Shown: positions 27,161-64,000 of the stretch, piece by piece | Layout: every line of letters starts with the position of its first letter | How positions within the stretch are numbered: position 1 is the first letter of the stretch | Source: Takakia lepidozioides | Taxonomy: Eukaryota; Plantae; Bryophyta | Assembly (NCBI GenBank): GCA_030704615.1 | Contig: CM060733.1 | Span: 34,596,001-34,660,000, forward strand | Length of the DNA stretch: 64,000 nucleotides | Direction of reading: 5' to 3' | Program-made: the position numbers and the translations under genes | The notes under the pieces: model-generated | The model's input: only the letters and a program-made list of their open reading frames with translations | Databases searched by the model: none | What the model was told of the DNA's origin: nothing

Positions 27161-27462
27161 TCTCTTGATCCTCTTTCAGAAGCTGTGGTCATGGTTGAGG
27201 TGCCTGATTTTATCAACTGTGCCGCTGCAGCTGCTACCTTTAGTTGACCATCTACCCATGCAGCAGGTTTCTTGTAGCTATTGATCCACATGGAATCATA
27301 GGTAATCTGGAGCTTGAAGTTCGGCCATCTTGGATGAATCTGCACCCAGACTCTATCCCTGCTCCTTCAGCTATCCATGCCGCTACACAAAATCATGCAT
27401 ACATCATTGTCTTGCTGCTAGCACCTAACAATGACAGCCTAGATTTGTTCTAGGAAACACCC

Positions 27463-27789
27463 TGTCAAGTTATTTTACCACTAGTGTGAAACTAGCTAGG
27501 AAATAGCTAGCTTTTACATATTGACATTTGGGATTGGCCCAAGTGTCAATCCAGGGGTCAAGGCAGATTTAGGCCTTGGAGTGGTTATCTTCACGGCAAG
27601 CGCGGGAGGCTCATCTTTCTCGAGTTGAGCCTCACCGCGCCTAGCTATGGCGCCGTAGTGTGGATTCCCCATGGCGTGGGGTGCACTTGGCTTGACTTGT
27701 ATTTGAGTGATGAGGTTATATATGCATGAGTTTATGCTTCAGCTTTGTGAGCTCGCATGAGCTTGTGCTTGTATTCTTCTTCTTTATCA
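27463..27789 (+). repeat. Terminal repeat A1 (327 bp, TG...CA)
   Basis: Matches 39668-39994 with one substitution seen by eye (AGGCCTTGG vs AGGCCCTGG). Confidence 0.95.
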
Positions 27790-27805
27790 CTCGAGAAAGA
27801 TGAGC
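27789..27805 (+). promoter_or_regulatory. Putative self-priming primer-binding site (Tf1-like)
   Basis: ACTCGAGAAAGATGAGC at the end of A1 is the exact reverse complement of 27609-27625 inside A. No TGG-starting tRNA PBS is present. Confidence 0.7.
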
Positions 27806-29339
27806 TCGTATCTATGAGTGCTAGATACGAGTTAGTTGTAGCACTTGTGGTTTTTGCTTGAGAATGAGAGAAACCAAGTTGTTATGCAAGGAGCACCGTG
27901 GAGCTCTTGGTTGTTAGAAGCGGAGGCGATGTGGTTACGAGGTGGTAAACCTTGGCATTCGATCTTCAGCTTCAGAGATGAAAGCACCATACTGTAGGTA
28001 ATTCCAGAGCACCTTGATGGTTTCAGATTGTGTACATGCATGAGCAAGCACGATTGGGAAGAGGACCAGTCAAGAGCAGGTTATAGTGGCTTTGGTGGCA
28101 AAGCTGAGAACTGGACTTGGGAATGCGAGCTGTCATTGTGTGAAGGATTGCAAGACCAAGCGAAAGGGCTGATTTGGCTTGGGGCAAATCAGTGCACTTT
28201 GTGGAGTATGGTGAGATTGGGTTTCAATCTCGAGCTTCAGCATTGAGAGGGCTCTTGTCATGGCAAGAGCAGGGCTGGAACAGGAGCTAAGAGGTGCGGC
28301 AAGGCCATGGAATGTGCACCTAGGGTTTCAGAGCTTGGAAGAAGAGCTCTTGCACCACAAGAGAAGTGTCTTGTGGCTGGAAATGTAAGCCTTAGGGTTT
28401 CAGGAGCTTGGCAAAGGCTGTGGAGTGCTTAGTCTTGTCTTAGAGAGCATCAAGGAGCCAAGGAGCCAAGATAGGGGGCTGATATCTCTTGTGTGAAGAG
28501 GTTGCATGTGTGGAGCATGTATTCAGCTCATTGAAGCTTCCATCTTCAAGCTTGGAGGGCAAGCAAGGAAGAGGGAAGGGCTGACTTCCCTTATGAGGGC
28601 AAGTATGTGGAGCAGCTATCAGCCTGTGAAGGCTTGCACTTTAGGTGTGGGAGTGCAAGAAAGGAAGGAAGGGGCTGGTTTCCCTGTAGGGCATATTAGA
28701 GCATGCTTTCAGCTGCTGAAGCTGATTCTCTTATGGTGAGAGTGGGGCATGTGTGGAGCAAGGTTTGTGGGGTGCAAGAATTAAGCAAAGGAGCTTATTC
28801 TCTTATGGTGAGAGTGGGGCATGTGTGGGATCATGCCCTTCAGCCCATTGAGGCTCTTGTTTTCAAGCCTTAGAGAGCTAGAAGTGAAGGTCTAGGGCTG
28901 GTTTCCACTTGGAGTGAAAGAACAGCACTTGTAGGCCTTGTGAGTTGGTTTTCAAACTTCAAAGCTTGAAAGTGCGCCAACTCTTGAAGCAACAGGTGTA
29001 GAGGGCTGGAATAGGCTCTAGACAGATGTTATGGCCAATGAGGGGAGTGCTTGAATGAGTGCTCACAGGGCTGGGAACCACAGGGCTTTGGTTGTTTGCC
29101 ATGGAGTTTAGTGTCGTGTTTGGGGAGGCTAAGTGAGAAAGAAGGCTTGGGTTTGTGGCAACCACCTCATGGCTTAGGCTACATTGTGGTGGTGTGTGGA
29201 GCCGAAAGAGCAAGGATACCTTGCTGATTTCCTCACATCCACCATAAGCTCGGTGGAAGAAGCTAGAGTCCAAGGACACAAACCCTAGCTTGGCGTGGGC
29301 TAACCCCTTGGAGAAATGCTAAACTGCCAGAGCGGCCAT

Positions 29340-31260
29340 GTGTGGGGCTGTGACAGGCTGTGGCAAATCTTGACGGGCTGTGTCAAGCTGTGACAGGCTG
29401 TGATGGGCTGTGTCAGGCTTGACACAGGCTGTGCCCAGTGCCTTTGGGGCTGTGACGGGCTTGCGGGGCTGTGCCAAGGCTGTGCCCTGAGGCCTGTGGG
29501 GCTGTGACGGGCTGTGACAAGCTGTGCCCATGGCCTGTGGGCTGGTGACGGGCTGTGACAGCTGTGATGGGTGTGCTGTGGATGGGCTGTGACAAAAGCT
29601 GTGTCCCTGTGCCCTGTGGGGCTGTGACGGCTGTGACAGGCTTGCCTGAGGCCTTTGGGGCTGTGACGGGCCCTGTGTGGGTCTGTGACATGCGTGCCCT
29701 GTGCCCTGTGGGGCTTGACGGGCTGTTCGCTGTGGCGAGCTGGGACGGGCTGTCGGGTCTGTGACAGGCTGTGCCCTTGAGGCCTGTTGGGATGTGAAGG
29801 GCTGTGACAGGCTGTGCGAGCTTTGACGTGTTTCCCCTTGCCTTTGGGGCTGTGGCTGTGAAGGGCTGTGACAGGCTGTGGGCCATTGGCCTTGTGGGGC
29901 TGTGGAACGGGCTGTTAAAGGCTGTGATGGCTGTGATGGCTGTGTACAGGCTGTGTCCCTGTGCCCTGTGGGGCTGTGAACGGGTGTGTCAGGCTGTGAC
30001 AGGCTGGCCCAGTGGCCTTTGGGGCTGGACGGGGCTGTTACAGGCCGTGCCTGAGGCCTTTGGGTGTGACGGGCTGTAGGGCTTGTGACGGCTGTGCCCT
30101 GTGCCCTTGGGCGTGACGGGCTTGGTCAGGCTGTGGGAGCTGTGACGGGCTGTGAGGGGCTGTGACAGGCTGTGCCCAGGGCCTGTTGGGGCTGTTGACG
30201 GGCTGTACCGGCTGTGGCAAGCTTTGACCGGTTGGATGGGCTGTGAGGGGCTGTGACAGGGTGTGCCCTGTGCCCTGTGGGGCTGTGACGGGCTGTGTGG
30301 CTGTGACATTGCGTGCCCATGGCCTTTGGGGCTGTGACGGGCTGTGCGGGGCTGTGACAGGCTGTGCCCTGAGGCCTTGGGCTGTGACGGGCTGTGACAG
30401 GCTGTGCCCATGGCCTTTGGGGCTGTGACGGGCTTTGATGGGCTGTGACAGGCCGTGCCTGATGGCCTTTGAGGCTGTGACGGGCTGTGAGGGGCTGTGA
30501 CAGCCTGTGCCCATGGCCTTTGGGGCTGTGACGCTGGAGGTGTGCTGTGACAGGCCGTGCCTGGGGCCTTTGGGGCTGTGAGGGCTGTGAGGGCTGTGAC
30601 AGGCCGTGCCCATGGCCTTTGGGGCTGTGACGGGCTGTGAGGGGCTGTGACAGGCCGTGCCTGAGGCCTTTGGGGCTGTGAGGGGCTGTGAGGGGCTGTG
30701 ACAGGCCGTGCCCTAGGCCCTTTGAGGCGTGACGGGCTGTGATGGGCTGTGGCAGCTGTGACATGCCTGTGATGGCTGTGATGGGCTGTGACAGGCTGTG
30801 CCCTGTGCCCTGTGACAGGCTGTGAGGGGCTGTGACAGGCCGTGCCCATGGCCTTTGGGGCTGTGACGGGCTGTGAGGGGCTGTGACAGGCCGTGCCCAT
30901 GGCCTTTGGGGCTGTGAGGGGCTGTGAGGGGCTGTGACAGGCCGTGCCTGAGGCCTTTGGGGCTGTGACGGGCTGTGAGGGGCTGTGACAGGCCGTGCCC
31001 ATGGCCTTTGGGGCTGTGACGGGCTGTGACGGGCTGTGACAGGCCGTGCCTGAGGCCTTTGAGGCTGTGAGGGCTGTGAGGGGCTGTGACAGGCCGTGCC
31101 TGAGGCCTTTGAGGCTGTGACAGGCTGTGAGGGGCTGTGCACAGGCTGTGCCCAGTGGCCTGTGGGACTGTGACGGCTGTGACCAGTGAGCTGTGTGGGC
31201 CTGTGCTGGTCTGTGGTGGCCCGTGTTGACCTGTGGACGGCCTGTGCTGACTCGTGGAGG
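29340..31260. repeat. Minisatellite in the retroelement leader: 10-bp GGCTGTGACR subunits forming a 51-bp higher-order unit
   Basis: Unit GGCCTTTGGGGCTGTGACGGGCTGTGAGGGGCTGTGACAGGCCGTGCCCAT recurs at 30850, 30901, 30952 and onward. Most homogeneous at 30300-31130. Confidence 0.95.
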
Positions 31261-31919
31261 CACTGGTGGACTGCCTAAGGACTGGCATGTGGTCTGGAAG
31301 GCCGAATTTTGAAGCTCGTGGAGGGCGGTTTGAGGAGTATCTTCATGATATTCCCATGGTCATGCAAGTGAGGATAGAGAGGAGAGGCAGAGTGTTGGGA
31401 TGAGAGCATGCTGGGGTTAGGCATTGCTTTAGCTTCTCTTCCTCGTAGTTTCCACCCTCTCATTAGGCCAAGACCTTTCCGTAGGTGGAGGCAAGAGTCA
31501 GTCCGGGTTTGGGCTGGGGTGTCCTTGCAGGAGCAACACCGTGGAGTTGTTTTTGGTGTGGGGAGTTGTCGTTCTGATTTCTTGTGTTTGGATCCCCTCC
31601 ATACCTGCATGCTTGACTGTGCGCCATGCTAGTTTTGTGTGGGCGCTTGTTTTTATAGGTGATTGGTCCGGATTTGATCACCGGCCAGTCCTAGAGCATG
31701 CTGTCGATGGTGAGGCTGGGGTGATGACCAGCCAGACCATCATTGTTTCTCCTGTGGTGAGGTTGGAGGTGATGACCAGCCAACCATAGGAGTGCTTGCG
31801 GTGGATGCAGGTACAGGTGTAGGCTATGTTAGGAACTTAGTATTCCAAACCATAAGCCGCAACAGGTTCTCTACCCGGTTACCTTGTGGAGAGGGGGTTA
31901 GGGACATGTTCATGACCGG

Positions 31920-33190
31920 TTGAGTGTCAACACGGAGGTGCCACTAGTTGCTGGGGACAGTGCCGGTTCGAGCACTAGCGATACTAGTGGGTACACGAGA
32001 CGAGGTGTGCGGTTTAGGCCACCTTCACCTCCTGTGTCTTCCACGGAAGGTTCTGATTCGGATTGTGAATCAGGAGGGCTCATACCGGCGGTGCAAGTTG
32101 TTTCTTTGCCATTGTTGTGGGACACAATGGAGGAGATGTATGGAGCTACCAAGGGGCCACGAAGGTACTCTGGGGCGGTGGGCACCATTGAGTTGGATGA
32201 TTTTATCCAAGAGTTTGATAGTTGGTGTGATTTGCAGCAAATGCGCAATCCACAACTATTTACGCCGTTCATGGCATGGAAAGGGCTGTTTCAGCACCTT
32301 GAGGGGCCGCCTATGGATGATTACCATGAGTTCAGGCGGGGGCATGAGGTTGAGATCGAGGAGTGGAGGATGTACTGGTCACCCGACTATGTCTCCATCA
32401 CTAGGGGCACTAGAGCCACGAGGGCAGTGGCTACACCTGCCGCTGCACCGGCAGCTTCAGCAAGCAGCAGTGGGACTGGTGGTACAGTAGCTACGACGTC
32501 CACCCAAGCCACTACCGCACCAGCACTAGCACCCGTGCCTGCCTTCAACCCTGTTGTGGAGTTCTTCGAAGAGTTGAGAGGGAACTACCAAGGGGTGAGG
32601 ACAGAGAAGTTGCGGAGCTTGCAAGAGTTCCAACGGAAGCCGACCGAGAGCTTGAGGGAGGCTTTCACTCGCATGAGGCGCTTGATAAATGTAACCCAAG
32701 GGGTTACGGAAGCTCAGGCAGTCCAATTCTGGTATGGGATATTGGACAAGGAGCTGAGGAGAAGGGTGCGGGATGCAACTCTCCTACAAGCGGCCCAACC
32801 CACCTTAGCAAATGTGTTTTTGCTGGCAGAGCGGATAGAGCTCAACATGGTGGAGGAACGAGTGGTCATGGTGGGATTTGCTAAGGAGACACCACGGGGT
32901 AGTGGTGCTCCTAGCCAACCACTACCTCAACGTGCTCAAGGCAACAAGGGGGCTCAGGTGAAGCTCAGGGAAGGGCAGAGAGGACCTCAGATGCAGGGGT
33001 CTCTCCCTTCATTTGCTGGCCAACAACGGGCGGATGTGGTGTGCTGGACATGTGGAGGACCCCATGTCAAGAAGGATTGTCCAGAGGGAGGCAAAGGGCC
33101 GGCACATGCACAGCCTGCACAGTTACAGTGTGGGCATTGTGGCAACACGGGCATGGAGAGGCTCAGTGTTATGGTTTGCATCCTGAGTTG
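31920..33190 (+). CDS. Retrotransposon Gag with two zinc knuckles
   Basis: LDDFIQEFDSWC, FQRKPTESLREAFTRMRRL, CWTCGGPHVKKDC, and CGHCGNT/GHGEAQC completed across a 1-nt frameshift near 33150. Confidence 0.9.
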
Positions 33191-34790
33191 CGCCCAGGCC
33201 AGTTCCAAGGGAACAATGGTGGCCGGGGGCGAGGTGGAGCAGCCCAGAGGGGACGAGGTGGCCAGCCACGAGGTGCAGGCCAAGGGCAAGCTCAACGTGG
33301 CCAAGGACGCGGAGGTCAGGGTGTTGACCAAGGCATGGCCAACCGGCTTCAGCAGCTAGAGCAGAGGCTCGCTGCCATGGCTACAGCTCAGGTGGTACCG
33401 GCTCTAAGGCCGGATGGTCCACCTCCTGCTCCTGAGGGAGGAGATATGGGAGGCATGGGATTCATGTGTGGAGCAGCACTACCACTAGTGCAGGTGGAGT
33501 CTGCTGCAGCCGTGACTCGAGGAGCAGCACGAGTTCCTGAGCCACGAGGTGCAGAGGTGGAGTTGGATCCACAGCGTGGGGAGGCAAGCCGTCAGGCTAG
33601 GCTTCCTCAGTCATTCACATTGGCGGAGACAGTGTCGACGCCATCCATGGCACCTAGTTCTCGCCCGACTGTTACCGAGGCGGAGGTCACTATGCCATTG
33701 GGGAGAGCTACACGGGTAGCACCACTACCTAGTGTTGCCAAGGCTACGGCAGCTAGTGTGCTGCTAGGAGCGGCCACATCTGTGTGCCAGGCTCCATTGT
33801 TCTCGGCTACCATGATTGCGACGCCGGGGGTAAGACCAGCTGAGGTGTTCAGGCTGGCAGCTACACTCTGTGAGAGTGGGGAGGTTACTTCATCTTCTGC
33901 GGAGATAGTGGGAGGTGTAGTGCCGGAGGGATCCTCGGATTTGAGGGTCAAGACTGCCACGGCGGCGCCATGGCAAGCTGCAGCTGCCAGGTTGATGGAG
34001 CTGCCAGCTAGGCCAGCCATTGAGCGCGCCATGGTGACACCTGGAGTTGTCATGTTAGACAACCAGGATGGCATTTTCTGTTTGAGTGGACCGGCAGGCA
34101 AGAGGTACCGGCCACTGCGAGTCTTGTTGGACTCGGGAGCTCAGCCACTGATGCTGGGCAGAGCTGCTATTGCAGGCTTGGGCCTCACGGAGGCGGATAT
34201 GGAGCCTTGTCCTTTCCAGATACAGACGTCTCTGGGAGGATCGGAGCAGGCTCGGGGCATGACACGGCATGAGTTGGCTATCAGACTACGGCCGGATCAC
34301 CCTACAGATGGCTCAGTGATGCGAGCCAAGGCCATTGTGACAGACGCAGTCTCATACGATGTCCTGGTTGGTGGGGCAGTGTTGTACCCCATGGGCTTCA
34401 CCCTGGATTTTTGGGAGGAGTCAGCTTCCTATAGGCCTGCATGGCAGTCAGGGGAGGGCCGGCGTGTGCAGCTCCCTGTGACGTTCATAGGAGGAGTTGC
34501 GGTTGCCCAGCGAGGCAAGATGCCGACACTAGCAGCATTCACAGCGGCAGTGAGTTGGCCTAGAGAGTTGCTTGAGGGCAATGCTCATTCAGAGGATGTA
34601 CCACCTCCGGGAGAGCAGGATGACATGTATGGTATGGCGGAGTTGCCTACCATGGTTGCTCAGACTCCATTGTGGGGCACGAGCAAGGATTTGCAGCGGG
34701 ATGCTGATCGACGGGTGCAACAAGCCTGGGTGGAGGCTTTTGTACCGTCAGGAGAGGAGGAGAGTGTGGGATTGCACCAGGACCACCTCA
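33041..34790 (+). CDS. Gag-Pol linker and aspartic protease
   Basis: RVLLDSGAQPLML (Asp codon at 34130) and YDVLVGGAVLY, preceded by an RGG-rich segment. Confidence 0.85.
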
Positions 34791-34791
34791 A

Positions 34792-36090
34792 TTGTCTCCA
34801 TTGGACACCACACCTATTGTGTGGCAGTCTCCGGATGAAGGCATTTGTCTTCTGGACTTGTTTGGCGGGATCAGCACCGGATTGGCTGCTGTGTTACAGG
34901 CAGGTGTACGAGTTCGGCGTTACCTGTATGTGGAGAGGGATGAGACTGCACGACGCGTTTCACTTCGCCATGTTGCTCAGTTGGTGCAGCGGTACCCTGA
35001 GTTGTTGTCGGTGTCTGCAATTCGTGGATATCAGCAGGCCTTGCCAGCAGACATTTCGTTGCTGGGGGCGCAGGATTTGGAGCGGGTTGGCTCCATTGAT
35101 CTGGTAGTGGCAGGTTGGCCCTGCCAAGGGCATTCATCAGCCGGGCATGGCAATGGATTGCGAGACTCGAGGTCGGGTCTGTTTTGGGAGATGGTGCGGG
35201 TTTTGCGCCACTTGCAGCTTCATCAAGCTGTATCTCCAGCATACATCTTGGAGAATGTGCCACTGATGGGCGATTCTCGGGCCAGGGTGATGGCCAGTGT
35301 GCATCAAGTCCGGTCGTGGCTTGGGTCAGCAGTGTTGCTAGATGCAGCTACAGTGGGGTCACGGGCTCATCGTCCACGGCTATGGTGGACTAACATGATG
35401 CCACCCGCACTGCTCAAGCGTGCATTTGATGGGGTGCAGCGGCCAGCACATCTCACAGTGGATAACATTCTGGACACAGGGAGGCAGTCTCAACGTGTGA
35501 GACACGATGACCGTTCGCCTTTGGCAGTGGTCAACAAGGTGGGTCAACCACGAGCAGCATTACCTACACTGCTCAGCTTCCCAGGATCGCATGCTTTCCG
35601 GGATAGTGGACCTGGCCTCCTGTGGGATGCTCAGTTGCAGCAGTTAGTGGAGCCTAATGCTGACGAGCGTGAGCGGGCAATGGGTTTTACCACTGGTACC
35701 ACGGCGGTGTCGTCTCTTTCTGAGGCATCACGTCGTCAAGTGTTGGGGCAAGCAATGGATCTCAATTGCTTGACCTGGATTATCAGCTTGGCTCTAGCTG
35801 AGCAACGCAGAGTGCGGAATACACTTCCCTCAATGGTCTCTCTGCCTACCGAGACGGTACAGGCAGTGAGTGGGGGCGAGCATATGAGGACCACGGGGTG
35901 CATGCATCCATGGCACACGTGGGAGGTGCTCGAGGTTCAGAGGGAGTTGGCAGCCAAGGCGGCTGTGATGGATGAGGTTGGGGATTCTTCTCGAGTTGAG
36001 GAGGTCCTCAAGGATGAGATGATGGGGCAGGATGATGCCTTGTCATTGACTGAGCAGGTAGGGAGTACTGCTCAAGAGGTTGCAGCATAG
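34792..36090 (+). CDS. C5 cytosine DNA methyltransferase domain (DNMT3-like, non-permuted) embedded in pol
   Basis: Motif I LDLFGGI, II YVERD, III ADI, IV GWPCQG (Cys codon 35122), VI ENV, VIII AHRPRLWWTN, IX ERERAMGF, X RRQVLGQAMD, all in one uninterrupted frame. Confidence 0.95.
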   Translation: MSPLDTTPIVWQSPDEGICLLDLFGGISTGLAAVLQAGVRVRRYLYVERDETARRVSLRHVAQLVQRYPELLSVSAIRGYQQALPADISLLGAQDLERVGSIDLVVAGWPCQGHSSAGHGNGLRDSRSGLFWEMVRVLRHLQLHQAVSPAYILENVPLMGDSRARVMASVHQVRSWLGSAVLLDAATVGSRAHRPRLWWTNMMPPALLKRAFDGVQRPAHLTVDNILDTGRQSQRVRHDDRSPLAVVNKVGQPRAALPTLLSFPGSHAFRDSGPGLLWDAQLQQLVEPNADERERAMGFTTGTTAVSSLSEASRRQVLGQAMDLNCLTWIISLALAEQRRVRNTLPSMVSLPTETVQAVSGGEHMRTTGCMHPWHTWEVLEVQRELAAKAAVMDEVGDSSRVEEVLKDEMMGQDDALSLTEQVGSTAQEVAA

Positions 36091-37575
36091 CAACCACGGG
36101 ACGCGTCCTCTACCTCTAAGCCCACTGGACTTAAGGTTGCAGTTACGGAGGACAATTGGGAGCCTGACATTGGACCCATTGTCACCGGAGGAGAGAGACG
36201 ACGTATACGGCGGTTCCTGAGGGCTTACAGGAATTGCTTTGCCTTCAGTTTGAAGGACTTGGGAGCACTGAAGGGTCAAGAGATCCGTATTGAGTTGGCC
36301 ACTGACACGCCAATCTTTCGGAGACCCTATAGATACAGTGACATGGAGAGGTCTTTGATTCAGATGAGGACTCAAGATCTCTGGGAGGCAGGTTTGGTGG
36401 AGCTCTCTGGTGGAGAGTATGCTTCAGCCACAGTGATGCCAGCCAAGAAGGATGTCTATGGCAATTGGACGGAGAGACGTATGTGCGGTGATTACCGGCC
36501 TGTAAATCGTCAGACCAAGTCCGATAAGTATGCCATGCCAACACCAGAGGAGATCTTTGATGCCATCGGGCATGCTAAGGCCTTTAGCACTTTGGATTTA
36601 CGATCCGGATATCACCAGTTGCCAATCAAGGAGGCGGACAAGCAGAAGACGGCATTCTGGGGGATCAATGAGCACGGCAAGGATTGCCTATATCAGTGGC
36701 GGTTCTTACCATTTGGGCTTAAGAATGCTCCTGCAGAGTTTCAGAGAGTCATGGATAGGATTCTAGCAGGGGTGGACTTTGCTCGGTGCTACATAGATGA
36801 CATCATCATCTTTAGTGTTACGATGGAGGAGCATGAGAGACACCTTCAGGTGGTATTGGAGCGCTTGAGAGCGCACGGATTGAAGTTGCATCCGGGGAAG
36901 TGCAAGTTTTTCCACAACCAGATTGAGTATCTGGGTCACATGATATATCCTGGAGGATTGGGGGTACAGCAGACTAAGGTAGAGGCCATTGCACAAATTC
37001 CACGCCCCACGGATGTGAGCCGAGTTCGAGCTTTCATGGGGTTGGCAAACTATTATAGACGGTTTGTCAAGGGATTTAGTACCATTGCAAAGGCTCTAAC
37101 CAAGCTGACCAAGGTGGACCAGGAGTGGCAGTGGGAAGATGAGCAGGAACGAGCTTTTCAAGAGCTCAAGGCGAGGTTGACCTCGGCGCCTATCTTGAGA
37201 CGACCTATCAGGGGGCGTCCCTTTCAGCTGCATACGGATTGGAGCATGCTGGGGCTTGGAGCGGTGCTCACACAGGTGGATGATGAGGGAAGAGAGTTCG
37301 TAGTGGCTTACGCTAGCCGCTCGAACAACGCTGCAGAGGCTAAGTACAGCTCATATGAGGGAGAGTGCTTAGCTGCAGTGTGGGCCGTGGCACACTTCAG
37401 GTGCTATCTATACGGCAATCTTTTCACCCTTGTCACGGATCACCAGCCACTCAAGTGGTTGATGGAGTCAGACAAGCTTACGGGAAGCTTGCACGGTGGG
37501 CACTTATACTCCAGGAGTATGACTTTCAGGTTGTGCATCGACCGGGTTTGGTCAATCGGGATGCGGATGGATTGA
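36091..37575 (+). CDS. Reverse transcriptase and RNase H (Ty3/Gypsy), same frame as the DNMT after a single TAG
   Basis: RMCGDYRPVN, LDLRSGYHQ, PFGLKNAPAEFQ, YIDD (36790), FQLHTDWS, VAYASR, YSSYEGECLA, VTDHQPL. Confidence 0.96.
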   Translation, partial: QPRDASSTSKPTGLKVAVTEDNWEPDIGPIVTGGERRRIRRFLRAYRNCFAFSLKDLGALKGQEIRIELATDTPIFRRPYRYSDMERSLIQMRTQDLWEAGLVELSGGEYASATVMPAKKDVYGNWTERRMCGDYRPVNRQTKSDKYAMPTPEEIFDAIGHAKAFSTLDLRSGYHQLPIKEADKQKTAFWGINEHGKDCLYQWRFLPFGLKNAPAEFQRVMDRILAGVDFARCYIDDIIIFSVTMEEHERHLQVVLERLRAHGLKLHPGKCKFFHNQIEYLGHMIYPGGLGVQQTKVEAIAQIPRPTDVSRVRAFMGLANYYRRFVKGFSTIAKALTKLTKVDQEWQWEDEQERAFQELKARLTSAPILRRPIRGRPFQLHTDWSMLGLGAVLTQVDDEGREFVVAYASRSNNAAEAKYSSYEGECLAAVWAVAHFRCYLYGNLFTLVTDHQPLKWLMESDKLTGSLHGGHLYSRSMTFRLCIDRVWSIGMRMD

Positions 37576-39221
37576 GTCGCAATCCATGCATGAGCCAGCA
37601 GGATGACACTGGAGCTCGGTGGCATGGTGAGACGGACGAGGAGATGGTGCCGGGATGGCACGCATCTGCATTTTTGTGTATCTTGGCATCGGGAGGTCAG
37701 ATTGGACCTACAACAGGGATGACTGTAGACGGAGTGTCTGAGGACCCTGAGGCTAGTGATGAGCTAGGTGGTGCCAGAGATATACATGAGGATTCGGCTG
37801 TGTTGGACTACCTCCGCACGGGAGACACGGCAGCCATTGTGACTGCCAGGGAGAGGGATCGGATCCTGCAACGAGCCAAGAGGTTCAAGTGGGAGGGGAT
37901 ACACCTACTTCGAGTGTGGGAGGATGGTCGGGTGAGGATTGTGCCTCACCCCACACAGCGTGCACGGTTAGTGCGGCATGCCCATGAGGAGTTGGGGCAT
38001 TTTGGAGTGCGACGCACTCACAGTTTACTGCAGGGGCAGTATTGGTGGCGTGGTATGCATACAGAGGTGCAACAGTTTGTGGCTAGGTGCATGGTGTGTG
38101 ACAGGGTGCGTGCTTCATTCAACGCCCCTACACCACAGTTGCATCCTTTACCTATCATGGGATTGGGCTACAGGTGGAGTCTTGACTTCGCAGGACCGTT
38201 GCCACTGACTATGCGCCACCACAGATATGTGTTGGTGATGGTGGAGCACTTCTCCAAGTGGATTGAGTTGGTTCCATTGCCTGACAAGGCTAGTGAGGGG
38301 GCTGCGTATGCATTCTTGGATCGTGTGCTTAGCCGATTTGGTGCTCCAGCTGAGGTACTCACGGACCAAGGGAGAGAGTTCTTGGGGGAGTTTCAGGCTT
38401 TGTGTGATAAAGCCTTGATAGACCACCGCACCACTTCTCGGGATCATCCTGAGGCCGATGGCTTAGCAGAGAGAGTTGTTCAGACGGTGAAGAGGGGTTT
38501 GCGCAAGTATGGCTTGCAGAAGGGACACCTAGGAGATTGGGATCTTCAGGTTCCTTGGTTAGCCATGGGCTACAGGTTCAGCAAACAAGCATCACTTGCC
38601 TCCTTCTCACCATTTCCTTCTCTTTGGCCGAGAGCCGGATTTGCCTGCAGCCATTCGTAAGGACACTGCTCAAGTCCTTAACCTTGACGATCCGGACGTG
38701 TGGGTACGTGCATGTGATCAGCGTGCAGAGTTGTTCAAGAAAGTCATGCCCATGGCTTTTGAGAACCTTGCCATTGCACAGCACCGTGATACGTTGAGGT
38801 ATGCCACTATACGTGGTGGAGGATATCGTCCTGGGGTTCGGAGGTTTAGCCCTGGTGACTATGTTTATTTGCAGCAGACTGCTCCTACGACTCTGGATGT
38901 TACTGCAGGGCGTGTTATTCTGAGGGTTCGAGAGGTGTTGCCCTCAGGGGTCCTGATCTTAGAGGGTCGGGATGGCATGACTTGGAAAGACCATGTGCGT
39001 AATTGTGCGCCATGTCACCTTCCCAATGTCGATGGCAGAGTTGACCCAAACTTGGCAGTGGTACCTGCAGGTTTGAGGTGCATGCTCTGTGGGTCTGCCA
39101 AAGGGGCAGCCACCATGCTGGTGTTGATCGGTGCTCAAGGGGTTGGCATATGGGATGCTTGACACCACCTCTTGAGAAGGTGCCTGACGGAGATTGGTTG
39201 TGTCCACACTGCTTGGGATAG
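37480..39221 (+). CDS. Integrase (HHCC, DDE core, C-terminal domain) ending in a PHD finger; 1-nt frameshifts near 37480, 38610 and 39125
   Basis: HEELGHFG...CMVC, WSLDFAGP, LTDQGREF, GLAERVVQT. The C-terminus is CMLC...[C]DRCSRGWHMGCLTPPLEKVPDGDWLCPHC (C4HC3) at 39079-39212, stop at 39219. Confidence 0.92.
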
Positions 39222-39480
39222 TGGCAGTGGACATGACTGGAGGCAGCTAACAAGCCATGGGAGGCCAAGCTCATAGGAGTCAATACATAAGATCCAAGCT
39301 CAAGTTCACAGGTTGCAAGACGGCGACTAACGATGGGGCAACTCTTGCACCCGGCCTCTTGATCTATCGAGTTTGAGTGTAGTAGGGATAGTGGTGGAGG
39401 ACTTAGTGAGGCTATGGTCACTATCACATCTTGTGGCTACCTGGACTTAGAGGGACCTAAGCACCAGCTAGGGGGGCGAT

Positions 39481-40183
39481 TGTGTGGACTAGTGACTGCC
39501 ATAGTGGGCAGCGTAGTGGCAGCTAGTGACTGACTAGTGTAGCCTAGTGGTTGACTAGTGGCTGGACTAGTGGTAGACTAGTGGTATACTAGTGTGTGGT
39601 GTGCACATGTGTTGTGTGGTTTTGGACAGCGATGTAGTTGTGTAGCGATATGTATGCGCACGACAGCTGTCAAGTTATTTTACCACTAGTGTGAAACTAG
39701 CTAGGAAATAGCTAGCTTTTACATATTGACATTTGGGATTGGCCCAAGTGTCAATCCAGGGGTCAAGGCAGATTTAGGCCCTGGAGTGGTTATCTTCACG
39801 GCAAGCGCGGGAGGCTCATCTTTCTCGAGTTGAGCCTCACCGCGCCTAGCTATGGCGCCGTAGTGTGGATTCCCCATGGCGTGGGGTGCACTTGGCTTGA
39901 CTTGTATTTGAGTGATGAGGTTATATATGCATGAGTTTATGCTTCAGCTTTGTGAGCTCGCATGAGCTTGTGCTTGTATTCTTCTTCTTTATCATTGTGT
40001 GGACTAGTGACTGCCATAGTGGGCAGCGTAGTGGCAGCCTAGTGACTGACTAGTTGTAGCCTAGTGGTTGGACTAGTGGCTGGACTAGTGGTAGACTAGT
40101 GGTATACTAGTGTGTGGTGTGCACATGTGTTGTGTGGTTTTGGACAGCGATGTAGTTGTGTAGCGATATGTATGCGCACGACA
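39481..40183 (+). repeat. 3' repeat block: B1 (39481-39665), GC, A2 (39668-39994), T, B2 (39996-40183), preceded by a short PPT
   Basis: PPT-like AGGGGGGCGA at 39470-79. B1 and B2 differ only by three 1-nt indels. B is TG...CA and rich in ACTAGT motifs. Confidence 0.95.
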
Positions 40184-43789: not shown

Positions 43790-46700
43790 TGTCGAACGGC
43801 TTTTACTCATCCATCCCTTCGCTATCCGAGGTGGAAACTCCAAGATAGAAGAGTTGGATATCTCTAAGCACTCAGCCCGCTCAGTACTATCAGTCATGAC
43901 CTGCAGCTAGTGAATCATGGTTGTGTTTCCCATTTGTATTCCTTCTTGCCTTCATGTTATCAATTTACCTTATCTGATACTGAAGCATTAGATTGCTTCA
44001 GTATCTACTTAGTTCCAGTTAATCATACATTCAAGTCACATCTTCACTCATGTCTCTCTACACAGTGTGATGGTATCGAATAAGTATCAGATTATGATTT
44101 ATCAGGTATCAGGCCAATGCCATGGTGACTCTAATCCGCCCTACAGTATCACTACAGCTCTGCATGTAATAAGCATCTACTGTTCATCTTTCCTCCTTCT
44201 CTGTGCTCTCGTTCTTGCTCTCCGCCTGATCTCCTCTTCCCATGATCCAGAAGCGCTCCCCGTGAAGTGATCCTCTTTCCGTTGCCGCTCTCCTTATCTG
44301 CCCGCAAGCTGTTCTAACCACCTAACTAACTAACTGTCATCCTGAAGTAACACGTTTCCCTCTGCAGATGTCGTTCCCTCACAGTCGTTCCCTGTCAATG
44401 ATAACTGTTCCCCATGTACTGTGACAGGCTGTGTCAAGCTGTGCCGAACTGTGACTGGCTGTGTAAGGCTGTGTCGGGCTGTGTCGGGTTGTGACTGGCT
44501 GTGTAAGGGTATCGGGCTGTGACTGGCTGTGCGAAGCTGTGTCGGGCTGTGTCGGGCTGTATACCCCCCTTAAAGCCTACTGTTGCCACCCCTAAGGCTC
44601 CTGTTGGTCTCAGTCTGCGCAAAAATTAAGGGTACCCCACAGAACCCGTAAAAGCGTCTAAGTCCCAAGTAGCCCTCTAACATTTATCCCTCCCTCTTTC
44701 AAAAAACCGTGTCCTCACAGTTTACTGTTTGGGATTAGCAAACCTTTGTGAGCGAGCACCCTTCTGACGGTGAGAGTCTCATAAAGGACTCCGTGTGCGA
44801 GCTCAAGTCCTGTCACTGGTTGACAGAGATGATTGAGCACTACCTGGAAATGTCTGACCCTCCTTTGGCTGATAACGAGGTAACCTCTCAGGCATAGGAG
44901 ATCCCCGTCGTTTCTTCTCTGCCATCTGAAGTGCATAGTCCCTCTGCCATGTCAAAAGAGTCCGCTGAAGAAAGAGTTGTATCAGAATCCTCGTCTCCCC
45001 TTAGGTGTTTTAATGGCCGAACTTTAAGTGGAATCCTGTGTGGCATACAATGTGGTCCGACCATATCTGGAAGTTTAAATTGTACAACTTGTTGTAAGCG
45101 CTGGCAAGCAAAATTAGTGAACGTCCTCAACCTTATCTGTATAGGTAAGAGGTGTGCCAATGACTTTGAACAGTGTAAGTATTTCCATGCCTCATGTCCC
45201 TTAAAGAAAATATCCTCAGGGCCGAATTTCTGTGTTGTTAAATTGTTCCAAGCCGAATGAAACCATGAACGAAGTTGGGAATCCTTCTGCATCATAACTT
45301 TTGCATCATATAGGTACATATGAGGCGGCTGAAGGTAAGACCCAATGATCCCCACTGGAATAACTCAGAAATCGGGATTGCATCCTCTGCTACTCAATGT
45401 GATAACGTGCCAGAAAACAAGCAGCATAGTATAATCCACAGCCCATGACAATACTTGATACCTCATTGGTCTTGGTATAAATGTACCCATGTACAATTTG
45501 GAAGGCAATTAATTCCTTCAACATGGACCTGCTTCAGACCAGTACCTCGCAAAGTGATGATCCTCAATGGGTCGATTGTTCGGAAGAACCTTAGTCCTAG
45601 TTGCCACTGGCAGCCAAATGCGCATGATCTGATCACGAAGTATGGTTTCGAAAATGCAATGGCAGTGACGACTCCTGCTGACCCTAATACTCAAATGAGT
45701 TTCTACTCTCTTTCGGGTGACTCAAAGAAAGAAGAAAAGGAAAACATCATGGATTACCAATTTCCATATCAGAAATGGTTGGGAGCTTGATGTTTGCAAG
45801 CATCGGGAGTCGTCCTGACATCTCATATGCAGTAAGTACAGTGGCAAAATACGCATCAAGACACATACCTGTGCACTGCAACGCTGTGAAACGGATCATG
45901 AAATACTTGAAGGGAACATCTCATTTTGTTCTGACCTACAATGGGAAGCAAGACACAAATCTGCTCATAGGATTTTGCGACACAGATTATGCTGGTGACA
46001 TAGATGAAAATCCAGATCGGATGTGTCATTATGTTGAACCAAGGAGCAATTGTTTGGAGCAGTCGGAAACAAGCGTGTACTGCTGGATCGACAACTGAAT
46101 CGGAGTACGTTGCGGCTCACATGGCTACGAGGGAGATTATTTGGTTACGGAGACTCATGGACTCCATTAGACATTCACAGAAGACACCCACCCCACTTCA
46201 CAGCGATAACCAGAGTTGCATCAGACTGGTTCACAATCCAGAGTACCATCGTCGAACAAAGCACATAGACGTTTAGTACCATGTCATTTGCGAGAACCAG
46301 ACGAAGGGAGAAATTGATATTCAGTATGTTCACACGAACGATCAGATTGCCGATATTTTCACGAAGGCTCTTGGTCAAACAAGTTCTTTCGTTTTCGCTC
46401 CATGCTTGGGTTGCATTCCCCAGCAAGTAATCTCTGTGCAAACGATCTTTGAAGCATGCATACAATGTCGGACTGAGTGGGAGTGTTGAAATCGAAGATC
46501 CAGTCCGTCATTGACATCTGGACCATGTTGGTCGAATAGTCATAGTCAGCAACTAGGTGGCAGTCCACCGAGCAGTCACAATCACAGATGCCAGTCAGTC
46601 ACATTTTGAATCTCTAGCCAGTTGGATCTCCCGCACTTAGTAGTACTTGTATTTTTTGGTGGCAGACGATACTTAGTTAGTTTTTATGTATGTTCTTGGG

Positions 46701-48685
46701 ATGCCCTGGTTGTAGTCTCAACCTCAGCTGTTGGGTCTACTTCTTCATACTCTTCCTCTTCCAATTTCTTCTCTTTTTCATCATCCAAGTTCTGCCCTTG
46801 GGTTTCTTCTTCACTCATGTAACTCAACTGCAATGGTGTTGGAGAGTCTGAACTCTCCGTTGGCTCTGCCACATCCTCTCCTCCTTCTTCATCTTCCGTC
46901 TCAGAAACTGGAGTTCCTGCTTTTGGTGTTCCATGCCAACTCTTATCAAAGATTTCTGTCAAATCTTTTATCCAGGGATGTACCTCAGATCTTTCACCTC
47001 GTGGTTGATCTTCTTCCAGTACCAATTCCCTTAATCTTTCTTGCAAAGAAAAAGAAGGAGTGGCATCCAACTCTAGTTCTTCCGGTATGGATGATGTACT
47101 CTCTGATCTTAATGGTGTGAGAGGTCCAGATGATTCCCCTATGTCTATTCCTCTCTCCCAAAGATATGGATAATTAGCTTTCAGATAACTTTCTCTTTTT
47201 GCTGAATATCTCTGGAGTCTAGCTTCTCTTTCATCACTCATGTCCCATGTCTTTCATTTCTTTAATGTGGCAATAACCAAAACTCTCTTCTGTAGTATCT
47301 CTCGTATATGCCTGGGTTTCTTTCAAGCTTCAATGCACCCTTGGCTATACTAGAAGTCTCCGTTACCATATAACCATATGGCAAACAAGTCTAAAAAGCT
47401 GTTCTTGGTGTGAGTTTGATCCACAGAATATCCTTTGGAATCCAATTCTTTACCAGTACAAGCTCTTCATGCATATGAGTATAAATATTCACCTTCCTTT
47501 CCTCCCAGCCTTCAAACTCTACTCGCTTAATGGATAGCAATGCTATCACATAAACCAGTGTTGGTAACCAACGTGCTCTTCCTCTACAGGCCACCTGATA
47601 AATCTTTATCACTCCTTTCTCCAAACCCCACTCAGGGTCAGCATCATGCACTCTCTTAAGAATTTTTTCTTTACAACCATCTGGCAATTCCAAGAACCTC
47701 TGAAAGAATTGTTTGGACAATCTTTCCTTCTCAGTTTCACAGGGAATTTGATTCACATCAAATTCTTTAATTCTCCAACCACCATGATCCCACCAGATGT
47801 CTGTCACATCTGGTTGTTTATGACCCAGGTCCCCAGTATGGTCGCCAAATGTCGAACGGCTTTTACTCACCCATCCCTTCGCTATCCGAGGTGGAAACTC
47901 CAAGATAGAAGAGTTGGATATCTCTAAGCACTCAGCCCGCTCAGTACTATCAGTCATGACCTGCAGCTAGTGAATCATGGTTGTGCTTCCCATTTGTATT
48001 CCTTCTTGCCTTCATGTTATCAATTTACCTTATCTGATACTGAAGCATCAGATTGCTTCAGTATCTACTTAGTTCTAGTTAATCATGCATTCATTTCACA
48101 GCTTCACTCATGTCTCTCTACACAGTGTGATTGTATCGAATAAGTATCAGATTATGATATATCAGGTATCAGGCCAATGCCATGGTGACTCTAATCCGCC
48201 CTACAATATCACTACAGCTCTGCATGTAATAAGCATCTATTGTTCATATTTCCTCCTTCTCTGTGCTCTTGTTCTTGCTCTCCGCCTGATCTCCTTTTCC
48301 CATGACCTTGAAGCGCTCCCCGTGAAGTGATCCTCTTTCCGTTATCGCTCTCCTTATCTGCCCGCAAGCTGTTCTAACCACCTAACTAACTAACTGTCAT
48401 CCCTGAAGTAACACGTTCCCTCTACAGATGTCATTCCCTCACAGTCATTCCCTGTCAATGATAACTGTTCCCCATGTACTATGACAGGCTGTGTCAAGCT
48501 GTGCCGAGCTGTGATTGGCTGTGTAAGGGCTGTGACTGGCTGTGTCGGGCTGTGTCGGGCTGTATACCCCCTCTAAAGCCTGCTGCTGCCACCCTTAAGG
48601 CTCCTGTTGGTCTCAGTCTGCGCAAAAATTAAGGGTACCCCACAGAACCCGTAAAAGCGTCCAAGTCCCAAGCAGCCCTCTAACA
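43790..48685 (-). mobile_element. Non-autonomous or internally deleted LTR retrotransposon inserted in the LINE
   Basis: LTRs 47850-48685 (5') and 43790-44682 (3'), TG...CA on minus. 5-bp TSD TCTTG. PBS TGGCGACCATACTGGGG and PPT GAAAGAGGGAGGGA. No pol of its own recognisable. Confidence 0.92.
45620..46695 (+). mobile_element. Copia RT-end/RNase H, PPT and partial 3' LTR fragment (same family as 3018-5705)
   Basis: SRPDISYAVS, GFCDTDYAGD, STTESEYVA, SDNQSCI, RTKHIDV. PPT GAGTGGGAG. 46484-46695 matches the reverse complement of 5490-5705 with about five differences. Confidence 0.92.
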
Positions 48686-51481
48686 TCTTGCCCCAATCAG
48701 TACAGTGCGAAGAGGTAGCCTGATTTTACAGCACCGAGAGAAGACCCATGGACTTCCTCCGGTTCATCTTCAAACCAGACCCTAAGCAAAAAATGTGCAA
48801 GGCCTGAAGAGCACGGTCTATATTTTCTCGGGATAAATTGTCCAGCAGTAAGAGGTATCATCAGCGTACATGGACAGTTTAACCATTTCCGGTGAGAAGG
48901 TAGGTAAATGAAGACCAATGATATCCTGCCTAGCTCAAAGAGGTGTCTTAGAGAATAATTCTGCTGCAATGAGAAAGAGGAAGGGAGCTAAGGGGCATCC
49001 CTGTCTGACCGACCTTGAGATAGGGAAAGACTGGGAGATGACACCATTGACCATAACCTTGTTATGGGCCGACCGAAGAAGGATCCCAACCCAAGACAAG
49101 AAGTGGCCATTCACGCCAGTCTTTTCCAGCGCAGCTAGGAGGAAAGTCCAATCTATTGAGTCAAAAGCCTTTTCAAAGTCCAGCATTAAGAAAGCAAGGG
49201 GTTGGTTGTTCAAGGTAGCTCGGTGAAGTGCTTCGTGGGCAAGCAAAATGTTATCCAAAATCATGCGGTCTTTAAGGAAGCCAGTTTGTTCTTTCCTAAT
49301 GATTTTTGGCAGTAGGGGTTGGATTCTGAGAGCAAGCGCTTTGGCGATAATTTTCTAAGTAGTATTGAGCAGGGTGATGGGCCGGTAGTTAGCTATATTA
49401 TCTCTCTCCCTTTCTTTGTAGATCAGAGTGATGAGACCTTCTGAAAATCTGAGAAGGCATCAACTATTTGTGGAGAATGTCGTTGGCCATATAGAGGAAA
49501 TCGTCACCCAGGGTAGACCACATAACTTTGAACAGCTCTACAGGTAGACCGTCCGGACCAGGGCTTTAAAGGGAGGGCAGGGCCTCCACAGCTTTCCCAA
49601 GTTCAGACTCAGTAAACGGTTCTACCAGTTTGACTTTATCCTCCTCAGAAAGGGAACATGGGATGTTTCTGAGGAGAGCCCTCCTAGCCTCCACTACCTC
49701 AGAAGTGTGATCTCTTTTCTGAAAAAGCTGTCTGAAGAAGTCAGCAGCAATGTTGGCCATCTTCTTTGGGACAACACTTTGGATACCAAAGACATCAGAC
49801 AGAGAGGGTATCAAAGTAGATGCACGACGTTGGGTAGCTTTGACAAAAAAAATTTAGACATCTTCTCCCCTTTAAGCGACCAATTGACCCCTGCCTTGGT
49901 CCTCATAAACTGCTCCTCGGAATGTGACAGTAATGAGCGGTTCTTCTCAGCAATTCAACGCTTTCTCTTTTCTAGAGGACTCTTCAGCCTTCTTCCTAGA
50001 CAACTCTTGGCAGATGCTTCTCAGATTCTGCAGTTTGGAGAGAAAAAGAAGAGTGGGGGAAGAGAAGGGGCGGTCAGCAGAGGACCAAACCCTTTGAAGC
50101 TCAAGAACCACCTCTGGGTCTTTGAGGAGTAGGGGGTTTAATTTAAAGAAACCCCTACCCCTCACCCTTGCCCCGGGGTGTGGAGAGAGAGCTAGACAAT
50201 AGAGTGATCGAAACCAGGAGCTATGGGAACAATGAGAGATATGACAATCCACTTTAACAAATGCTCAGAGCAGTAGAACCTATCCAAACGAGCTAGCTAG
50301 GGAGATGTTTGGAGCATGTAAATTTCAGCTCTCCTACATTGGGGGGGTAGCATCCAACAAACTAACCACCAAGCAAAGCGAATCCCATGCATCTCTTTCA
50401 ACAGCAGAAAGACCATGGACGTTTGAGCCAAAGCGTCATTGTCACACTCCATCATATTAAAATCCCCTCCCAATATCCAATGTTGAATGTCCATACGCTG
50501 CATCATTCTCAACCTTACAGTAGACCAAATATCAATATGTTCGACTTCATTGTTAGGGGCATAACCCTATTTTAACTAATTCTGGACTTTTGGCTTAAAT
50601 CCGGACCAAACTTAATATATATTTGAATTAAAATTAATTCAAATGTTAATAATATAGGTCATCTTCATCAAGTTATTTTAATATTTTACTGCCCTTCTCA
50701 CACCCAAAACATTATTTCAATGGCATCGTCTCTGAATATTGTGCTTGTCAACATGAAGATTCAATGAAAATTACTATCAAGTTGTATCGAGTATGGTAGA
50801 GTAGGAGTCTACCCCATGTTCGATTCGACACATTTATTTATCGTGATTACATAATGTAATATTACATCATTCGATTTCCCAATGGACGTTCAATGAATTG
50901 TTCAGTATTGCAACTTCACAAGCACTTCAATGTCAAATGGACATCTTATATGTCACATTTTGAAGCAAGTATAACATCACCTGTAATTTCACAAAGTTCA
51001 ATCACACAGAGGGAGTGCACTTGTCTCTCCCCCCTACTGCGCCAAGATGCCAGCTTCGTTGAGAAGCGGCGGGGTTGCATGGAGCATCTGCATGCAAGAC
51101 ACGTCGTCCCTGAACGGTCCAGAGTCGCGCTAAAATAAGGTTGTTTCAAAACAGACGTACGCGCCTAGGGGAAATTTTGGTTGTCGCTTCAGTGGTGGTC
51201 TCTTCTCCACGTCCTCTGCTCATACAATTTCATCCTAGCTGCTTTTCATCTTCAGTTATGACACATCACATCTTAAGATAGAATGAACAGCTGGCTGGAC
51301 GGCTGGTGTATGTAAAAAACCGTTGGATACAGGCAGTTAATGATTACATATGATACCTTGTCAGATGGGTAATGTGGATGGATGAGGATAGATGGCCTAG
51401 TGCAAAGTGGAATGAAACTGCTCATCCAGCTAGCCGTGCATCGGCAGTGACGTTCCTGTATGGGCGCTTCGATCATGTTGT

Positions 51482-62100: not shown

Positions 62101-64000
62101 ATCTTTTCATGAGTATCTGGATGATTTCATGCAGTGTTCTTGGATGATTTCAGTGTGTACAGCTCTAAGAATGAGCACTTGCATAAATTGGAGTTATGTT
62201 TGGCCAGATGCAGGATGAGAGGTCTGGGCCTGAATCCAGAGAAGTACTTTCTGTGTGAACTCAGGGGTGCTTTGGGACACATTGTGTGTAAGAGGGACTT
62301 CTTGTGGATCCCAGGAAGACAGAGGCCATTAAAGCCTCTCCACCACCAGTAAATGTTAAGAGTCTAAGGAGATTCCTTGACAAACCAGTTATACAGAAGA
62401 TTTGTCAAAAGTATGCACAGATAGCAGCACCATTGAGCAAGCTTCTGAAGAAAGATGCAGTGTTTGCATGGACAGCTGAATGTCAACAGGCTTTTGAGGA
62501 ACTTACATTGTCAGTAACAACTACACCTGTGCTGATTAACCCTCACTGGCATGTAGTATTTCATGTTCACTGTGATGCCTCAGGAGAAGCGTTGGGAGCG
62601 GTGTTAGCCCAAAATGTTACAGGAAATATAGATTCACCTGTGTACTATGCTAGCAGGTTGATGAACAGTGCTGAAAGGAACTATAGCACAACTGAAAGAG
62701 AAGCACTGGCAATGATTTATGCAGTCAAGAAATTCAGGCATTACCTATTGGGAAGAAAGTTTATGTTTTATGTGGATCACCAGGCTCTGATATATCTGGT
62801 GAACAAACCTTTGATAAGTGGAAGGATAGCAAGGTGTTAATAATCTTGCACAAGTTTGAGTTCGAAGTTGTTTACAAGCCTGGCCGTTTGCATCTTGTGG
62901 TAGATCATTTGTCACGCCTAACAACAGGAGAGTCCACCACAGGAGTAGACGACCAATTACCTGATGCGAGTTTATTTGCAATGGAGGTGCAGGGAAGTGC
63001 AGATGAATGGTTAGATTGGCAGTGGCCAATCAGATACTACCTTACTCATGGTCAGTTCCCACCTAGTTATGGTAAGGAGCAGAGGAAGAGAATCGCTATC
63101 AAGGCTTTACCTTATACTATGGTAGGGGGCAGAATGTATAAGCTAGGACCTGGTGGAGTACTTAAACGATGCTTGTATCACCATGAAGTAAATAAAGTTT
63201 TGGAGGAAGTTCATAAAGGAGTGGCTGGAGGACATTTTGGAGAAGAGACTACCAGTAGGAAGATACTACTTGCAGGTTACTAGTGGCCTACTTTGTTCAA
63301 AGATGTACACAAGTATTGTCAGAGTTGTGATGAATGTCAGAGGCTAGGACCTTTGCAGAGATCCAGGAAGATGGCTTTGCATCCTACGATGCCTACTGAA
63401 CCATTTCAGAAATGGGGACTAGACTTTGTTGGACCAATTAACCCACCAGCCAAGAATACACAGAACAAGTACATAATTACAGCCACTGATTATACTACGA
63501 AGTGGGTGGAAGCTCAAGCTCTGAGGGACAACACAGCCAAGTCCACAGCAAGGTTCCTGTATAAGAACATACTTACACGATTTGGCTGTCCCCTGGAATT
63601 TATCAGTGACAGGGAAGTCACTTCATTAATGAGACCATTGAACTATTGACTAAAGAGTTCATGATTGTGCATAGGAAAAGTACAACATATTACCCACAGG
63701 GTAATGGGCAGGCAGAGGCTACCAACAAAATACTATGTACTATCTTGGCTAAGATAGTCAATGCAAACAACGGATTGGGATACAAAGCTGCTGACAGCTT
63801 TGTGGTCATACATGACTTCATATAAAGTCACCACTACACCATTCCAATTAGTTTATGGTATGGAAGCTTTACTTCCAGTGGAATTCTTGTTACCTACCAT
63901 GAGAACTGAATGGGGAAAGAGAATGGAATTGGAAGATTCAATTAAGGTCAGGAAACATGAATTATACCATGTGGAAGAAGTACGTGCTGATGCAGCTAAT
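59200..64000 (+). mobile_element. Degenerate conventional Ty3/Gypsy gag-pol with no DNMT, running off the window
   Basis: Gag QLKQKKHETVEEY, knuckles CAKCQNEGH/CTICKMDNH/CYYCNQAGH, protease LIDGGSGVN, RT MDGFSGYNQ/MPFGLCNAPATFQ/FLDD, RH VHCDASG/NYSTTEREAL, IN WGLDFVGP/ISD. Many frameshifts; LTR not delimited. Confidence 0.93.

Follow-up and report, generated by a model that had tools for sequence, protein, structure and literature searches.

A conserved in-frame UAG between methyltransferase and reverse transcriptase in a DNMT3-carrying Ty3/Gypsy clade, a likely site of programmed readthrough

Is a single in-frame stop codon between the DNA methyltransferase and the reverse transcriptase of a retrotransposon a lesion of one copy, or a switch that sets the amounts of its products? 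The question is raised by a Ty3/Gypsy element in a 64,000-nucleotide stretch of the Takakia lepidozioides genome (assembly GCA_030704615.1, contig CM060733.1, positions 34,596,001 to 34,660,000 of the forward strand), here called the window, whose own numbering is used throughout. At 36085-36099 the window reads GCA TAG CAA CCA CGG. An open reading frame (ORF) at 34708-36090 that matches DNA_methylase (E 5.7e-13) closes at the TAG at 36088-36090, and a second ORF at 36091-37575 that matches RVT_1 and RNase H opens with QPRDASS in the same frame, as a preliminary description of this DNA had noted. This TAG is the sole stop between the DNMT3-like methyltransferase (DNMT) domain and the reverse transcriptase (RT). 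As in type I readthrough, a UAG is thus followed by an in-frame ORF, and the CAA CCA at 36091-36096 matches CAR-YYA, the readthrough context of tobacco mosaic virus (TMV). CARYYA follows ~0.2% of stop triplets, both in the window (14 of 5755, every frame of the two strands) and in nine related loci (14 of 9312); TAG-CARYYA occurs four times in the whole 64 kb on both strands. We conclude that a clade of DNMT3-carrying Ty3/Gypsy elements has conserved this UAG as an in-frame stop, and that it likely acts by programmed readthrough. The features at the junction are as follows, with Gag and protease (PR) encoded upstream.

36088-36090, plus strand: in-frame UAG terminating Gag-PR-DNMT, conserved in family contigs and relatives
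36091-36096, plus strand: CAA CCA hexamer, TMV-type CAR-YYA readthrough context (consensus from PMC3542737)
36101-36116, plus strand: 5' arm of a predicted long-range RNA stem, 10 nucleotides (nt) past the stop
36188-36204, plus strand: 3' arm of the predicted stem, over the N-terminal RT codons GERRR

The junction is conserved within the family, which comprises tens of thousands of matching contigs. Among 675 contigs of run X3 aligned to 36050-36130, no other letter reached 1% at 36086-36097, in counts that are contig-based and therefore lose rare variants, with changes near stretch ends going unlisted. The neighbouring positions 36084 (~10%), 36085 (20%) and 36098 (8%) were the only ones to vary at 1% or more. 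Runs X5 (five contigs), X6 (one) and X12 (one) likewise contained no change at 36086-36097.

A metagenome scan confirmed 311 loci, the best 80 of which were used here as relatives, and a genome scan supplied a further locus, L111. Relatives with as little as 51% DNMT identity still have the in-frame stop, which reads TAG CAG TTA, TAG CAA TCA or TAG CAA CCA. Group G2, at 51-53% DNMT identity to the window, has a single in-frame TAG in 5/5 junction-spanning loci, followed by CAG TTA in L016 and L017 and by CAA TCA in L029, L068 and L111; a further locus, L056, ends short of the junction. In the intact L016 the coding region stays in one frame throughout, and its only stop divides 1369 codons of Gag-PR-DNMT from 1047 codons of RT, RNase H (RH), integrase (IN) and PHD finger. 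L111 has the same one frame and one stop, its 5' side being cut by the contig end, and ORF2 is open for exactly 1047 amino acids in L016, L029 and L111. The record that contains this near-complete eukaryotic Gypsy-DNMT3 element of L111 bears the title of a cyanobacterial genome assembly, probably through binning contamination. At 60% DNMT identity, L033 has TAG CAA CCA in the DNMT frame; this locus shows decay, with two stops further upstream, and its contig does not extend as far as RT. Differences in the motif between the window, G2 and L033 are confined to the degenerate positions of CAR-YYA. The sequence flanking the junction is mostly 27-50% identical between lineages. Since the second codon after the stop encodes Pro, Ser or Leu, it is the YYA nucleotide pattern that is maintained and not a residue. 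The distance from stop to RT is 96, 78 or 99 nt in different lineages, with the frame always kept.

A larger moss-type group, G1 (38 loci), groups with a Sphagnum protein. Thirty-two of its loci span the junction, with TAG in 22, TAA in nine, TAC in one and CAG or CAA in none. The resulting 31/32 is the highest stop frequency of 1592 codon positions, the next position reaching 42%. The preliminary description had named a CAG (Gln) in other copies as the sign of a private C-to-T mutation; neither CAG nor CAA was found at the 32 moss-type junctions or at six others. Given the conservation in family contigs and relative loci, both a private C-to-T mutation and a sequencing error at the stop were rejected. 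The expectation that stop and CARYYA would be kept together held for the family contigs, G2 and L033, whereas the moss-type loci keep the stop and mostly read CAACCC. In group G3 (36 loci, 36-44% DNMT identity) an open linker connects DNMT with RT, and no junction stop is shared among its 22 aligned copies. Among viral contigs, 30/30 methyltransferase matches were weak and phage-like (E 2e-15 or weaker).

Downstream of the stop, RNA folding predicts a stem of 15 pairs in the window, after a 10-nt spacer and with a loop of ~70 nt. G1 and G2 are predicted to fold a stem at the same place, starting 10-12 nt downstream of the stop and with the 3' arm over the same RT codons. The prediction agrees with the extended-stem type of PMC3159437, which has at least 10 pairs after a spacer of 8-12 nt. 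Segments of 120 nt after the stop had z-scores of -2.4 to -4.5 in 6/9 cases. The arms pair well within a group and poorly between groups: 5' arms of the window and G1 gave -17.4 to -27.4 kcal/mol with 3' arms of the window and G1 and -8.7 to -17.4 with those of G2, and G2 arms gave -15.0 to -35.5 kcal/mol within the group against -7.2 to -17.3 across groups. Both arms differ together, as whole blocks, between the window/G1 set and G2. Cognate pairing was equalled by 0-17 of 418-796 controls from the same element, placing it in the best 0-2.2% in 6/6 elements. Median pairing at the homologous place was -19.4 kcal/mol in G1 (25 loci), -24.9 in G2 (five loci) and -10.5 in G3 (26 loci), compared with -22.6 in the window, so that the open-linker group lacks the stem there. 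In G2 the stem has 11 pairs, with 54/55 cells paired. Such a predicted stem would stimulate readthrough jointly with CAR-YYA.

The stop-bearing elements form one clade. Three protein searches gave 42, 5 and 48 partly overlapping matches; the named relatives are Marchantia polymorpha proteins (DNMT ~60-77%), whose junction is known from protein ends only, and one Sphagnum fallax protein. A FastTree phylogeny was built from 75 DNMT domains, including 13 loci picked as representatives and excluding 16 near-duplicate or long-branch proteins and matches shorter than 270 amino acids. It is layered into 25 proteins of order RT-RH-DNMT-IN, 14 rows with DNMT and RT fused by the open linker, and a clade of 36 rows (SH-like support 99, no bootstrap, midpoint root). 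This clade contains all 10 stop-bearing loci and 26 proteins, of which 21 end after DNMT, one is truncated and four are NCBI models that skip the junction. A quick IQ-TREE run on 53 rows supported the same clade at 88. These trees are most simply read as one gain of the stop, in descendants of single-ORF elements. In the sister group (P0026-P0031, P0034, P0037, P0043-P0044, P0046-P0047 and P0078-P0088, one of them named Scenedesmus) DNMT lies between RNase H and integrase, so the domain was relocated within the polyprotein.

Taken together, the stop is real and conserved and probably functional, and the copying enzymes are likely made in small amounts through its occasional readthrough. Most ribosomes would terminate at the UAG, yielding Gag-PR-DNMT. 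A small fraction would decode it as an amino acid and continue into Gag-PR-DNMT-RT-RH-IN-PHD, helped by the hexamer and the predicted stem, at a rate of perhaps a few percent by analogy with the 5% of murine leukaemia virus (MuLV; PMC2194720); the long form would then be cleaved by the protease. The switch may have arisen once, from single-ORF ancestors, as a means of keeping RT and integrase scarcer than Gag, PR and DNMT. The readthrough interpretation of the preliminary description is thus largely supported, by nucleotide-level conservation and a predicted 3' stem, with readthrough itself inferred from sequence.

Several observations weigh against this interpretation. Three of the nine post-stop segments (L012, L013 and L017) fold like shuffles, and other segments of the same elements reach similar z-scores, so sliding z-scores alone do not mark the site. 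The G2 stem contains no two-sided change; four of its 11 pairs vary one-sidedly and one cell breaks. G3 is AT-richer and for that reason a weaker control for the stem. Run X3 shares its sample with X1, a possible source of the window, and the near-identical X6 is another possible source. Several of the G1 loci are probably, and many may be, one insertion recovered in multiple assemblies. The window, L033 and 5/5 G2 loci match CAR-YYA, and G1 departs from the TMV consensus at the sixth base in 30/32 loci, where CAACCC is followed by ATG. Tca2 is an example of a gag stop, in frame and followed by a 3' structure, that need not give readthrough from its junction sequence alone (PMC2194720). Finally, the UAG fits a YAG splice acceptor, with pyrimidine-rich sequence upstream in several lineages, and four NCBI models from Marchantia and Sphagnum (P0004, P0007, P0009 and P0024) join DNMT to RT across the stop.

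The acceptor-like UAG and the four gene models favour partial splicing of the kind known from Ogre, which splices at its GAG-PROT/RT border (PMC6317226): a minority of transcripts would lose an intron ending at or past the UAG, joining ORF1 to RT. We consider this improbable. The four models have four different upstream break points, and P0004 drops the conserved RT N-terminus. The two ORFs abut with one codon between them, against ~274 bp in Ogre, and splicing offers no reason for CAR-YYA or a stem to be kept after the AG. The TAA in 9/32 G1 loci was not counted against splicing, because G-to-A decay is common at similar sites. Run X12, which is RNA only by guess, has one unspliced contig over 35716-37700 and is uninformative on expression and splicing.

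We find it equally improbable that Pol is produced on its own, whether through reinitiation after termination, internal entry or a weak promoter inside the element, with initiation guided by the stem. In G1 an ATG stands at codon 3 past the stop in the context CCC ATG G, Met occurs at codon 5 in L017 and codon 14 in L029, and a junction promoter is described for Tca2 (PMC2194720). In the window, L016, L068 and L111, however, the first in-frame Met comes at codon 85-117, within RT (codon 85 in the window), and a separate start leaves the hexamer unexplained. A separate Pol start may be the mode in G1 alone. The G1 junction, for instance at 2686-2697 of L014, reads stop-CAA-CCC-ATG-G; less efficient readthrough, or else reinitiation, may operate in this lineage.

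The stop might instead be a nonsense mutation inherited within a non-autonomous lineage, or the product of a methylated CAG prone to C-to-T change. Such an origin would fit the decay of G1 CAG sites to stops (median 18%, up to 33%) and the one DNMT CAG-site stop shared by 12/22 G3 copies, but it is largely refuted and very improbable given CAG or CAA at 0/38 junctions, an intact ORF2 of constant length in three loci, and a young window copy in so abundant a family. The stop shared by those G3 copies lies at an early DNMT codon (L048:6067) and may reflect either a hot spot of decay or a subfamily whose DNMT is dead.

Readthrough at this position would have consequences for stoichiometry. The preliminary description had proposed that the stop makes DNMT at near-Gag levels. 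DNMT does lie on the Gag side of the stop, but single-ORF relatives already tie Gag, PR and DNMT 1:1; the effect of the stop would therefore be to make RT and integrase scarcer and not to raise DNMT. Its suggestion that the Gag/Pol switch is unusually placed needs qualifying. Alpharetroviruses switch after Gag-PR as well. A split after the protease is known from Ogre, where an intron of ~274 bp precedes RT-RH-INT (PMC6317226, which also covers two-ORF GAG-PROT elements), while readthrough at that border behind a DNMT was not found described. Ogre thus shares a switch after the protease and before RT-RH-INT; in the window the ORFs abut with one stop and no non-coding intron, and DNMT is upstream of the switch.

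UAG-CAR-YYA readthrough and 3' stems are described in PMC3542737, PMC3159437 and PMC3441728. With TMV-type readthrough the window shares the UAG, the hexamer, the in-frame polymerase downstream and a plant host (PMC3542737). It differs in being a retrotransposon and not an RNA virus, and its predicted long-range stem is nearer the extended stems of type II. Viral readthrough stems have an 8-12 nt spacer and a long loop, both matched by the prediction, and the benyvirus coat protein extension shares a stem after a short spacer (PMC3159437). SIRE1, MuLV and Tca2 also have retroelement ORFs split by one in-frame stop (PMC2194720, PMC3414828, PMC3441728). The parallel with SIRE1 drawn in the preliminary description does not extend to gag/pol, as the stop of this Copia element is at the pol/env-like border; MuLV has a gag/pol stop with a pseudoknot, and Tca2 has UGA and no CARYYA.

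The nearest described element is KnitGypsy-Dnmt3 of Klebsormidium nitens, a Gypsy with DIRS-like repeats and DNMT in its Pol ORF (PMC5890265). The shared features are the Gypsy domain set, the Dnmt3-type methyltransferase and the DIRS-like repeats, the last compared with a figure legend only. In the window, DNMT instead ends ORF1 and a conserved stop precedes RT. By that description, the window element is a related variant of the KnitGypsy-Dnmt3 type and not a member of that family; no match in the three protein searches was named Klebsormidium. A term search of the main text of PMC5890265 found no mention of readthrough, though its figures may show the ORF layout. Streptophyte Gypsy-DNMT3 is named in bioRxiv 10.64898/2026.05.21.726589, where a term search of the text found no mention of readthrough or stop codons. 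No report of DNMT/RT readthrough, or of the clade in bryophytes, was found in a literature scope outside which lay subscription papers, Repbase and the main gag-pol recoding survey. Both the signal and the element that carries it, Gypsy-DNMT3, are of known types; the placement at this border and the accompanying stem were not found described.

The junction is a natural, clade-wide candidate for programmed readthrough among Ty3/Gypsy elements of plants; for this border, only splicing was found described. Its signal is short and open to testing, and the open-linker relatives and the CAA CCC ATG lineage provide natural controls. Because the stop is conserved, gene models of these elements end after DNMT or splice around it. 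The arrangement also bears on the role of transposon-borne DNMTs, as an enzyme on the abundant, Gag-linked side fits action on cDNA within the particle. More tentatively, and with a little more doubt than belief, we propose that a hybrid signal of TMV hexamer and long-range stem behind a captured DNMT3 was invented once as a Gag/Pol switch, from single-ORF ancestors, in a widespread split-repeat Gypsy clade of liverworts, mosses and other hosts. Its particles would carry capsid-level methyltransferase around a few RT and integrase molecules and methylate cDNA before integration, and the moss lineage may have shifted to reinitiation.

The element that hosts the stop is a Ty3/Gypsy retrotransposon at 27462-40183 that starts with TG, ends with CA and has ACCC on both flanks. 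Its repeats are split in the layout A...B-GC-A-B, with the 4-bp target duplication. The Gypsy domain order RT-RH-integrase, with a DDE core, was confirmed. The features of the element are as follows, all on the plus strand.

27462-27789, plus strand: repeat A1, the 5' terminus, starting with TG after the target-site duplication ACCC; 327/328 identical to A2
29320-31360 (ends approximate), plus strand: tandem-repeat array of 10-, 41- and 51-nt units in the 5' untranslated part
32127-33150, plus strand: Gag (Retrotrans_gag match below the curated cut-off; 59% to P0001), with a CCHC-type zinc knuckle at 33042-33080; frame break at ~33150
33151-34767, plus strand: Gag tail and aspartic protease, LLDSGA at 34124-34141 (Pfam aspartyl protease match in the L016 homologue, below cut-off); frame break at ~34767
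34768-36087, plus strand: DNMT3-like cytosine methyltransferase (PF00145, E 5.7e-13) with what we take to be motifs FGG (34852), PCQ (35110), ENV (35245), RPR (35371) and X (35743), and a linker of ~93 amino acids
36091-37481, plus strand: RT (YIDD at 36790) and RNase H, by domain matches to RVT_1 and RNase H; frame break at ~37481
37482-39218, plus strand: integrase (H2C2 zinc finger, rve core), C-terminal domain and PHD finger (E 4.4e-7); frame breaks at ~38620 and 39125
39479-39665, plus strand: repeat B1, then GC, then A2; junction CACGACA-GC-TGTCAAG
39667-40183, plus strand: repeats A2 (39667-39994) and B2 (39994-40183); 3' terminus CA, then ACCC

The DNMT domain is intronless and unpermuted, with catalytic motifs present, and its best PDB matches are DNMT3A chains (E 1.3e-11). 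The window copy is young, as its A repeats differ at one position. Its reading frame is broken five times, and the Gag-PR-DNMT and RT-RH-IN-PHD layouts therefore rest on the relatives L016, L111 and P0001. Family contigs carry an extra base at 34767 and 37481, the only two breaks within the contig-covered stretch, and three one-base indels are the sole differences between B1 and B2. So many one-base indels in a very young insertion point to errors of an unpolished long-read assembly. No second copy of the family was found within the 64-kb window.

The arrangement A...B-xx-A-B also occurs in L031 and L044, again in company with a DDE integrase and with target duplications of 4 bp (AAGG and CATA, respectively), and L048 and L055 share the split repeats. 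The inner B-A junction resembles that of a circle with two long terminal repeats and two extra bases. Split repeats of this kind suggest DIRS-like replication coupled to integrase-type insertion, a mechanism that was not found described.

The 5' array is a 2-kb, GC-skewed stretch with related units at 44400-44560 and 48460-48560; units like it sit in a repeat pair spaced by 4 kb (43790-44690 and 47850-48690). Two other Gypsy elements are present as fragments, one on the minus strand at 55-388, 2610-3020 and 3236-3865 and the other on the plus strand at 61523-63937. The first is 83% identical to the leader at 31486-31819 and 71% to repeat A.

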